From positions 36,642,001 to 36,706,000 of the forward strand of contig OX597838.1 in the NCBI GenBank assembly GCA_951406725.2: a DNA stretch of 64,000 bases. Direction: 5' to 3'. This document shows, in pieces, positions 29,881-31,195 of the stretch (its first letter is position 1; each line of letters begins with the position of its first letter). The stretch is from Octopus vulgaris. Its lineage: Eukaryota. The notes under the pieces are model-generated. The model was not told where the DNA came from. It searched no databases and saw only the letters and a program-made list of their open reading frames with translations. A program made the position numbers and the translations under genes.

Positions 29881-29885
<5 letters not shown>

Positions 29886-30052
29886 TCACGTGAAGAGAGT
29901 CATATAACTCTGTTATTGAGTGATATTAACACAGCATTGCTTATAGTAGAAGTGACATTCTGCAATGAACAGCTGCTAATAATGCATCGAAACAGCTGTA
30001 GTGACATGTAATAAAGCCTGCTATATCCATCTTCTCATGTGTATGCATGTAC
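29881..30052 (+). mobile_element. Microsatellite-flanked element with hammerhead-like motif and AATAAA
   Basis: TTCAC-GTGAAGA...GCATC-GAAA-CAGCTG-TA-GTGAC, then AATAAA. Confidence 0.55.
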
Positions 30053-30076
30053 CTATATATATATATATATATATAT

Positions 30077-30243
30077 AATTATTTAATATCAGGGTAATAA
30101 AGATTTTAGAAATTTTTACTACCTGTGACCTAGCGTATAGAAAAATTAGTCAATAGACTATATATTATTCATTGAAATATAGTGTACATTTAAACATGGA
30201 ATCCTTTGAAGGATTCCTCTTATGTGTTTAAATGTACACTGAA

Positions 30244-30246
<3 letters not shown>
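30077..30246. mobile_element. (TA)n-flanked element with terminal hairpin
   Basis: AGTGTACATTTAAACA...GGAATCCTTTGAAGGATTCC...TGTTTAAATGTACACT. Confidence 0.6.
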
Positions 30247-30287
<41 letters not shown>

Positions 30288-30289
30288 TA

Positions 30290-30762
30290 ATAAATATTAG
30301 GGAATAAATCCAAACTTACAGGGAAAAATCAGATTTAGGATTGAATCCAATTTTATAGTAAAATATTATATTATATTAAATTAGAGACAAAACCACTATT
30401 AGGCAAATCAAACAATGAAAGACTTAAGCCAATACATAAATTAATTTATATTATTTAAATATGTAACAATTATTAAAAAAATATAATTAATATCCACTAC
30501 GATCGATTCCTGGCTGCTGTCATCAAATTTTTCTTGGCGAGTTTTAAACAATTGTTTAAAACTCGCCAAGAAAAATTTCGAAACACCTGATGAATGACTG
30601 CGACCTAAAAATTTGATGACAGCAGCCAGGAAACGATCGTAGTGGATATTAATTATATTTTTTTAATAATTGTTACATATTTAAATAATATAAATTAATT
30701 TATGTATTGGCTTAAGTCTTTCATTGTTTGATTTGCCTAATAGTGATTTTGTCTCTAATTTA

Positions 30763-30772
<10 letters not shown>
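30290..30772. mobile_element. Large foldback element (arms of about 165 bp) carrying a hammerhead motif
   Basis: Arms at about 30366-30532 and 30607-30772 are near-perfect reverse complements; nested palindrome AAATTTTTCTTGGCGAGTTTTAAACAATTGTTTAAAACTCGCCAAGAAAAATTT. Confidence 0.8.
30584..30644 (+). ncRNA. Type I hammerhead ribozyme motif
   Basis: CAC-CTGATGA-[ATGACTGC..20 nt..GCAGCCAG]-GAAA-CGATCG-TA-GTG. The core is intact, stem III is palindromic, and stem II has two mismatches. Confidence 0.7.
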
Positions 30773-30802
<30 letters not shown>

Positions 30803-30849
30803 TGGTACATGTAACTCTCAGCTCTTGAGTCACTCTGGTACTTATGCTA

Positions 30850-30887
<38 letters not shown>

Positions 30888-30889
<2 letters not shown>

Positions 30890-31160
30890 GTAAATGTAAT
30901 ATGTGACAATTGTTCGGTAGCCATGATGAAACTCCGAGTTTTGGATGCTGAGGTGGAAATCCATGCCGCCATCACTTCAGTTATCCAGCAATCGGAATAT
31001 GGCGGAGTGGATTTCCACCTCAGCATCCAAAACTTGGAGTTTTATCATGGCTACCGAACAATTGTCACATATTACATTTACAGGTAATTTCCTGGCCAGC
31101 ATATTAAAAAATACCTTTAAAGGTTACAATTATAAACAACTTATAAACTTATTTATAAGT

Positions 31161-31162
<2 letters not shown>
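30888..31162. mobile_element. (TA)n-flanked foldback element (arms of about 85 bp)
   Basis: Arms 30888-30972 and 30999-31083, with a tail on the right. Confidence 0.75.

Positions 31163-31195
<33 letters not shown>

Follow-up and report, generated by a model that had tools for sequence, protein, structure and literature searches.

Likely Penelope-like element ends stacked at one (TA)n microsatellite of Octopus vulgaris

Introduction

What kind of DNA are the short, unlike modules that succeed one another between (TA)n tracts in the genome of Octopus vulgaris, and how did several of them come to lie at a single site? The window analyzed here comprises 64,000 nucleotides of contig OX597838.1 (assembly GCA_951406725.2, positions 36,642,001 to 36,706,000, forward strand). 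It is AT-rich and rich in microsatellites, with 131 pure TA tracts of at least 12 bp, 48 of which are at least 24 bp long. The initial annotation of positions 29881-31195 described five dissimilar foldback and hammerhead modules, considered them diverse non-autonomous ribozyme elements collected by a self-renewing (TA)n landing pad, and proposed an undescribed system. The array is a real stack, likely of Penelope-like element (PLE) ends from about six insertions. Its pieces are probably the 5′-truncated 3′ends (pLTR remnants) of several (TA)n-targeting PLE families, inserted successively into one microsatellite.

In the sections of the literature drawn on here, the GIY-YIG endonuclease of PLEs is described as cutting AT-rich DNA, and their RT as initiating at two sites within the RNA, one on either side of the tail (PMC11167929). 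Hammerhead cleavage is not needed in vitro (Frangieh et al. 2024, PMC11167929). PLE copies that are inverted, 5′-truncated, and joined at a palindrome occur commonly (PMC3846280, PMC8557442). Head-to-head repeats whose junctions are palindromic were reported by Arkhipova et al. (2013, PMC3846280), and Craig et al. (2021, PMC8557442) describe 5′ truncation, inverted 5′-truncated copies, and a tail of 30-40 bp at one end. Minimal hammerheads occur in pLTRs, mostly as single remnants of low activity (Cervera and de la Pena 2014, PMC4209133), and some are paired 100-700 bp apart on opposite strands (PMC4209133). Hammerhead-bearing, (TA)n-targeting PLEs are known, octopus included, and a (TA)n preference is listed for 26 of 27 Hydra families, Hydra-1_Obim among them, and for all five cephalopod Naiads (PMC8557442). 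Because it also occurs in Naiads, (TA)n insertion is not diagnostic for the Hydra clade. In O. vulgaris, PLEs make up 6.83% of the genome and fall into 190 families (Bonar et al. 2026, PMC13282606).

Layout of the array

The stretch 29881-31162 is a succession of unlike modules, set apart by (TA)n tracts 24-35 bp long. The positions and the TA spacers agree with the initial annotation, except that the left edge of module 1 is formed by a (CA)n tract. The features are listed below, with the strand where one applies.

28578..28788, minus strand: a further module of the same build, 1.1 kb upstream and flanked by (TA)n tracts, with a foldback (55/62) and a 78-nt tail
29830..29880: (CA)n tract, left boundary of the array
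29881..30053, plus strand: module 1, a low-copy decayed repeat with only the 3′ half of a hammerhead, GAAA-CAGCTG-TA at 29989-30000
30054..30077: (TA)n tract of 24 bp between modules 1 and 2
30078..30246, minus strand: module 2, a head-to-head foldback (arms ~30174-30246) plus a tail of ~97 nt (30078-30174)
30247..30289: (TA)n tract, pure over 30247-30281
30290..30366, minus strand: tail of module 3, 77 nt, on one arm only
30367..30772: module 3 foldback, a snap-back centered on a 6-bp palindrome at 30549-30554, outer arms 164/166 identical
30584..30644, plus strand: type I hammerhead with a perfect core (CTGATGA 30587-30593, GAAA 30630-30633, palindrome CGATCG, TA 30640-30641)
30768..30799: (TA)n tract of 32 bp between modules 3 and 4
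30800..30854, plus strand: module 4, an imperfect 20-nt palindrome (16/20) plus ~35 nt
30855..30887: (TA)n tract of 33 bp between modules 4 and 5a
30888..31093: module 5a foldback, arms 30888-30972 and 30999-31083 (81/85), tail cut after ~10 nt
31093..31162, minus strand: module 5b, an 11-bp hairpin at the (TA)n and a partial tail of the type found in module 2 and 28578-28788, fused tail-to-tail to 5a
31163..31192: (TA)n tract of 30 bp, right boundary of the array

Apart from the second, the five (TA)n tracts are pure over their whole length. Five modules had been counted, and the others stand as placed, but module 5 is most likely two families fused at 31093, which makes six. Both sides of this position continue differently in all four sequencing runs described below: beyond 31093, another continuation is present in 24-60 contigs per run, and before it other letters are present in 35-65 contigs per run. 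In view of this probable fusion, the 79-nt "tail" of module 5 was rejected as a true tail.

The modules had been called dissimilar, and in BLAST each matches only itself, bar short matches at chance level. The tails of module 2, 31093-31162, and 28578-28788 are, however, related. No shuffle in 500 aligns as well as the tails of module 2 and 28578-28788, which are homologous, while 31093-31162 carries their motif in the opposite direction (6/500 shuffles, weak by itself among 110 comparisons). The two best non-self matches to the 28578-28788 tail in the window are the module 2 tail and 31093-31162.

Module 4 is possibly a minimal foldback with a tail. It has zero contig cover in all four runs, which has no bearing on its copy number. 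A likeness to 50247-50302 was dropped, as it falls outside the ten best window-wide scores.

Elsewhere in the window, 50000-50820 holds a second, looser series of TA-separated pieces. Within it, 50247-50499 is a TA-flanked foldback with arms of ~55 bp, which may contain a decayed hammerhead that does not rise above chance (stem I of 7 bp, core changed at two positions). Just right of the array, 31585-31991 is a higher-order tandem repeat with periods of ~28, 56, and 195 bp. Very long microsatellites lie at 24231-25414, (AAT)n of ~394 units, and at 38649-39648, degenerate (AT)n of ~500 units. Frames of 700-850 codons without a stop run across a 24-bp minisatellite at 35564-37585 (84.5 copies, 91% matches). 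Inverted pairs of SINE-like repeats occur at 8955-9804 (92%/202 bp) and 28887-29231 (66%/354 bp). The 5S rRNA-like copy at 7443-7551 on the plus strand (65.8 bits versus a gathering score of 38, terminal stem broken) is either a 5S rRNA pseudogene or a 5S-derived SINE.

Foldback anatomy

Three foldbacks had been reported in the array, and all three hold. Besides the arms of modules 3 and 5, whose identities are given above, those of module 2 align with 28 identities, 3 mismatches, and 11 gap positions. Modules 2, 3, and 28578-28788 share one anatomy: the same end occurs twice, one copy meeting the (TA)n directly and the other passing through the tail first. An inverted, 5′-truncated, head-to-head build with a palindrome at the junction is found in modules 2, 3, 5a, and 28578-28788, the direction of the foldback arms being taken from the hammerheads of modules 3 and 5a. 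The inverted pLTR-like structures and the (TA)n preference invoked by the initial annotation are supported.

The 3′ tail is optional and present at one end only, with alternative ends at 30367 and 31083. Its length of 77-97 nt compares with 30-40 nt published for PLEs (PMC8557442, as far as its text was available) and is possibly a new feature. In File S7 of the same source, three Hydra consensus sequences inspected by eye continue for ~55-70 nt beyond a TA-like point, a hint that the Hydra clade already includes tails exceeding 30-40 nt.

Hammerhead motifs

Hammerhead-type motifs had been assigned to two modules. The GAAA-palindrome-TA motif is present in both, in module 1 (29989) and module 3 (30630), but the full type I descriptor is matched by module 3 only. 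The motif is well above expectation, with two occurrences in the five modules against a mean of 0.016 in 3000 dinucleotide shuffles, none of which reached two. The descriptor with a perfect core finds two sites in the window (30587 and 21322; mean 0.015 in 200 shuffles), both within TA-flanked modules. One core mismatch adds 15943 on the minus strand; two sites then have a stem I of at least 4 bp (shuffle mean 0.08). Two core mismatches are uninformative (3 observed, shuffle mean 1.2), and a hammerhead-like match at 50375 was discounted at this level.

In the copy at this locus, the module 3 hammerhead has a stem I of 3 bp. In the left arm, 36 bp are missing between two 8-bp direct repeats, AAAAATTT, a loss that includes the CUGAUGA of that arm. 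Among other copies of the family, a C follows 30583, a T follows 30644 or 30645, and 30629 is a T (unphased). Combined, these letters would lengthen stem I and close stem II.

Module 5a harbors a decayed hammerhead of the Hydra-clade type, read from the center outward, which the initial annotation overlooked. More than 90% of the summed depth in run X1 has G instead of A at 31029 and C instead of T at 31035, and these two letters give GAAA followed by a stem III as listed for Hydra-2_aMil and Penelope-16_HM. In the left arm, the core is changed at one position, A9, and 5 nt of this arm pair with the stem I strand of the right arm. In one X1 contig the core ends in GAAGAG, as in Hydra-1_oBim, but U4 is changed. 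The canonical Hydra hammerhead (3-bp stem III, loop of 1-2 nt) fits 5a only when unphased family letters are combined. Every observed copy is imperfect, and an intact ribozyme may only be surmised for the 5a family.

The half-hammerhead of module 1 sits 53 nt before the (TA)n and has no intact core or stem I; with the descriptor above and spacing of up to 60 nt, no CUGANGA plus stem I is found even at two core mismatches. In other copies, most of the depth has a different palindrome (G to A at 29995, C to T at 29996). Two letters thus vary between copies while the palindromic character is kept, suggesting a genuine ribozyme end that has decayed. No hammerhead was seen in modules 2, 4, 5b, or 28578-28788. 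Overall, a type I hammerhead is present in module 3 and decayed in 5a, and modules 1, 2, 4, and 5b lack one.

A scan with Rfam models, as the initial annotation had proposed, did not corroborate the hammerheads: none of the 39 matches in 29850-31220 (E up to 10), nor the single match in 30552-30670, is to a hammerhead family. Hammerheads are likewise absent among the matches for 21280-21420 and among the 150 of 484 matches listed for the whole window. MFE folding is not significant for the module 3 hammerhead (z 0.58) or for 21310-21385 (z −0.57).

Outside the array, the best-formed hammerhead of the window lies in a TA-flanked module at 21121-21569 on the plus strand; this perfect-core type I hammerhead at 21322 has a 6-bp stem I and a cleavage site 197 nt before the (TA)n. 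Another TA-flanked module, at 15723-16085 on the minus strand, contains the hammerhead at 15943, with one core change, a 4-bp stem I, a long stem II, and an MFE z of −2.27. Pattern scans of viral and metagenome contigs returned four loci, none with TA tracts or a BLAST match to the window, and these were set aside as chance.

Other copies of the modules in sequencing runs

Contigs of four runs (X1, X2, X4, and X7; four species labels) were aligned to 29830-31260 at 80% likeness, a range to the right of 28578-28788. Summed depth is not a measure of copy number, and it may be inflated by AT-rich matches at this threshold. The summed peak depths in X1 are 411 for module 1, 261,494 for module 2, 2,210,148 for module 3, 0 for module 4, and 1,217,336 for module 5, and the other three runs give the same order. 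Modules 2, 3, and 5 are high-copy in all four runs, and module 1 is low-copy (411 versus 39.8 for its locus piece in X1).

Single-copy modules, modules without (TA)n flanks, or modules that always occur together would have spoken against the initial annotation. Modules 2, 3, and 5 are instead multi-copy, and summed depths differ ~5000-fold between modules. Elsewhere, copies of modules 3 and 5a stop at the tail-less point and abut (TA)n. Among the 24 of 1079 loose ends listed, this repeat lies directly before 30367 in 24 X1 contigs and 26 X4 contigs, and it follows 31083 in 31 X1 contigs. Insertion into (TA)n is thus a property of these families at other sites as well as at this locus.

Across the four runs, the depth of module 3 is ~70 to 260 times lower at the hammerhead than at the 3′end (X1, 2.21M to 29k; X2, 1.35M to 18k; X4, 863k to 3.3k; X7, 128k to 1.5k). 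A near-identical 97-nt piece across the hammerhead stands at ~7 times single-locus depth in X1. The 15 of 30 joints listed all fall inside single modules, at scattered points; contigs break at TA tracts, so that joints across module boundaries could not appear. The depth gradient in all four runs and the scattered internal joints (in short contigs) point indirectly to variable 5′ truncation.

Assignment to Penelope-like elements

The link to PLEs drawn by the initial annotation is supported by the one-sided tails, the tail-less ends at (TA)n, and the module 3 hammerhead core. EN+ PLEs (Penelope/Poseidon, Neptune, Nematis, and Naiad) share head-to-head inverted copies, the junction palindrome, and a tail at one end (PMC3846280, PMC4209133, PMC11167929, in the parts of these papers covered), as well as close hammerhead remnants on opposite strands and AT-rich targets. 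Full-length EN+ PLEs have direct (tandem) pLTRs around the ORF. The array differs from EN+ PLEs in general in having short ends only, with several families stacked in one tract.

The Hydra clade, e.g., Hydra-1_Obim, shares (TA)n insertion and a type I hammerhead near the 3′end (PMC8557442, same parts). Hydra-clade proteins are further marked by RWK and DKT motifs, a CxCX5C linker, and an endonuclease lacking CCHH. With unphased family letters combined, module 5a would match the stem III and core type of the listed Hydra hammerheads; its cleavage site lies 42 nt from the (TA)n compared with 36 in Hydra-1_Obim. The module 3 hammerhead has an even palindromic stem III, unlike most of those listed. 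Module 5a looks Hydra-like, and module 3 does not.

No RT or GIY-YIG match to Pfam was obtained in any of the 267 filtered frames of at least 55 aa in the window, of which three have sub-threshold matches to membrane proteins, and no credible coding match is present in the window. The missing RT and GIY-YIG match is expected for truncated ends. The proposed PLE membership rests on structure and hammerheads, with no gene linked.

The families are probably unnamed so far. Three module words are absent from the 5,371-character supplement of PMC13282606, the repeat library of which may already hold them, and six are absent from the searched parts of the PMC8557442 supplement. A comparison by eye revealed no match of the modules to the Hydra-1_Obim 3′end or to either of the two Naiad ends given there.

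On the preferred reading, formation of a foldback would start from two cDNA ends, one begun at each internal RT site, which join head to head after early truncation and leave a foldback plus a tail. Each insertion would split the tract, leaving (TA)n on both sides; the (TA)n would regrow by slippage and then be hit again. A later deletion would have fused 5a and 5b. The hammerheads of the array are likely passengers, mostly dead.

Alternative readings

The modules are unlikely to be discrete non-autonomous ribozyme elements, whether retrozyme-like or SINE-like and PLE-derived, that a PLE enzyme moves in trans as short RNAs. The 3′ parts of the modules are very abundant, and the near-identical 97-nt piece over the module 3 hammerhead would suit such an element. 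Animal retrozymes have been reported as PLE pLTR derivatives (10.64898/2026.07.22.740005, in the part available), and pLTRs alone are able to act in cis (PMC3846280, likewise). Non-LTR retrozymes also have in common with the modules that they are short, non-coding, and PLE-related, with a type I hammerhead (10.64898/2026.07.22.740005). They are, however, head-to-tail tandems with a hammerhead per unit, characterized by self-cleavage and circular RNA, whereas the units of the array are unlike one another, head-to-head, and mostly without an intact hammerhead. The only tandem repeats within 29881-31195 are microsatellites, and only one of the six modules has an intact core. The depth of module 3 at its hammerhead is ~75 times below that at its 3′end (X1). 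This inward fall, together with foldback centers that vary and other copies that run on beyond them, is as in 5′-truncated copies. Most modules are without a working ribozyme.

It is improbable that the foldbacks are MITEs of (TA)n-targeting DNA transposons, with incidental hammerhead motifs. The Mutator-like MuTAnT, a 200-300 bp foldback with long TIRs, inserts inside (TA)n (PMC4486113, in the sections covered), and modules 2 and 28578-28788 show no hammerhead. MuTAnT differs in its symmetric TIRs, DNA transposase, and occurrence in plants, and it has neither a tail nor a hammerhead (PMC4486113). Symmetric terminal inverted repeats and a fixed structure are not found here, where tails are one-sided, ends are alternative, and centers vary; a perfect hammerhead core lies inside the right arm of module 3. 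The scattered joints fit variable foldback centers, not a fixed MITE.

That the array is a single composite unit moved as a block, or a product of chance or assembly, is highly improbable: clustering exceeds simple insertion models and none of the contigs listed spans the whole stretch, but the ~5000-fold spread in depth rules out a single fixed unit, the module 1 locus piece is found at 0 differences in three of four runs (3 differences and 3 gaps in the fourth), and arm ages and orientations differ.

The array is likely ordinary transposon debris piled at one target, not a new system, and as a whole it is likely functionless. The proposal of an undescribed system gives way to published hammerhead-bearing, (TA)n-targeting PLEs with tails and inverted copies (PMC8557442, PMC4209133, and PMC3846280, as far as covered). 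No description of mixed-family PLE stacks in one (TA)n tract was found among titles and abstract openings, with most subscription journals and Repbase outside this scope.

Accumulation at one tract

Arm divergence amounts to 2/166 (1.2%) in module 3, 4/85 (4.7%) in 5a, and 7/62 (11%) in 28578-28788, and orientations are mixed. These differences fit separate arrivals, although gene conversion between arms can blur ages. A (TA)n that acts as a self-renewing landing pad is a plausible inference. MuTAnT offers a precedent for renewal, with tracts that lengthen after insertion: filled sites carry 15 repeats per flank and empty sites 9 (PMC4486113, same sections). A toy model distributed 10 hand-picked modules over 40 tracts. 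With fixed targets, six modules shared one site in 0 of 200,000 trials; when every insertion added one new target, six of the 10 fell at one site with P 0.0006. Because P is 0.0006 or less in this simple renewal model, renewal would help but be insufficient for the pile-up; hot sites and the choice of this window for its pattern must contribute.

A bolder proposal is a long shot. The foldbacks with tails of 77-97 nt would be an undescribed, very abundant class of non-autonomous PLE derivatives, and the PLE RT itself would extend or rebuild the (TA)n spacers in a telomerase-like manner. Chains of mixed families would thereby lengthen at interstitial microsatellites, much like the chains of retroelements found at telomeres.

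Significance

If the array pieces are truncated PLE ends, the finding is mainly a point of annotation: TA-flanked foldbacks that are very common in this genome, and readily classed as MITEs or unknown repeats, would be ends of PLEs. Such stacks would also preserve the order in which several families inserted at one site. As natural variants, the longer tails would help to map the two internal RT starts, which have been described for one PLE in vitro. A bearing on the link between PLEs and telomerase would follow only if the RT of the element itself had produced the spacers.
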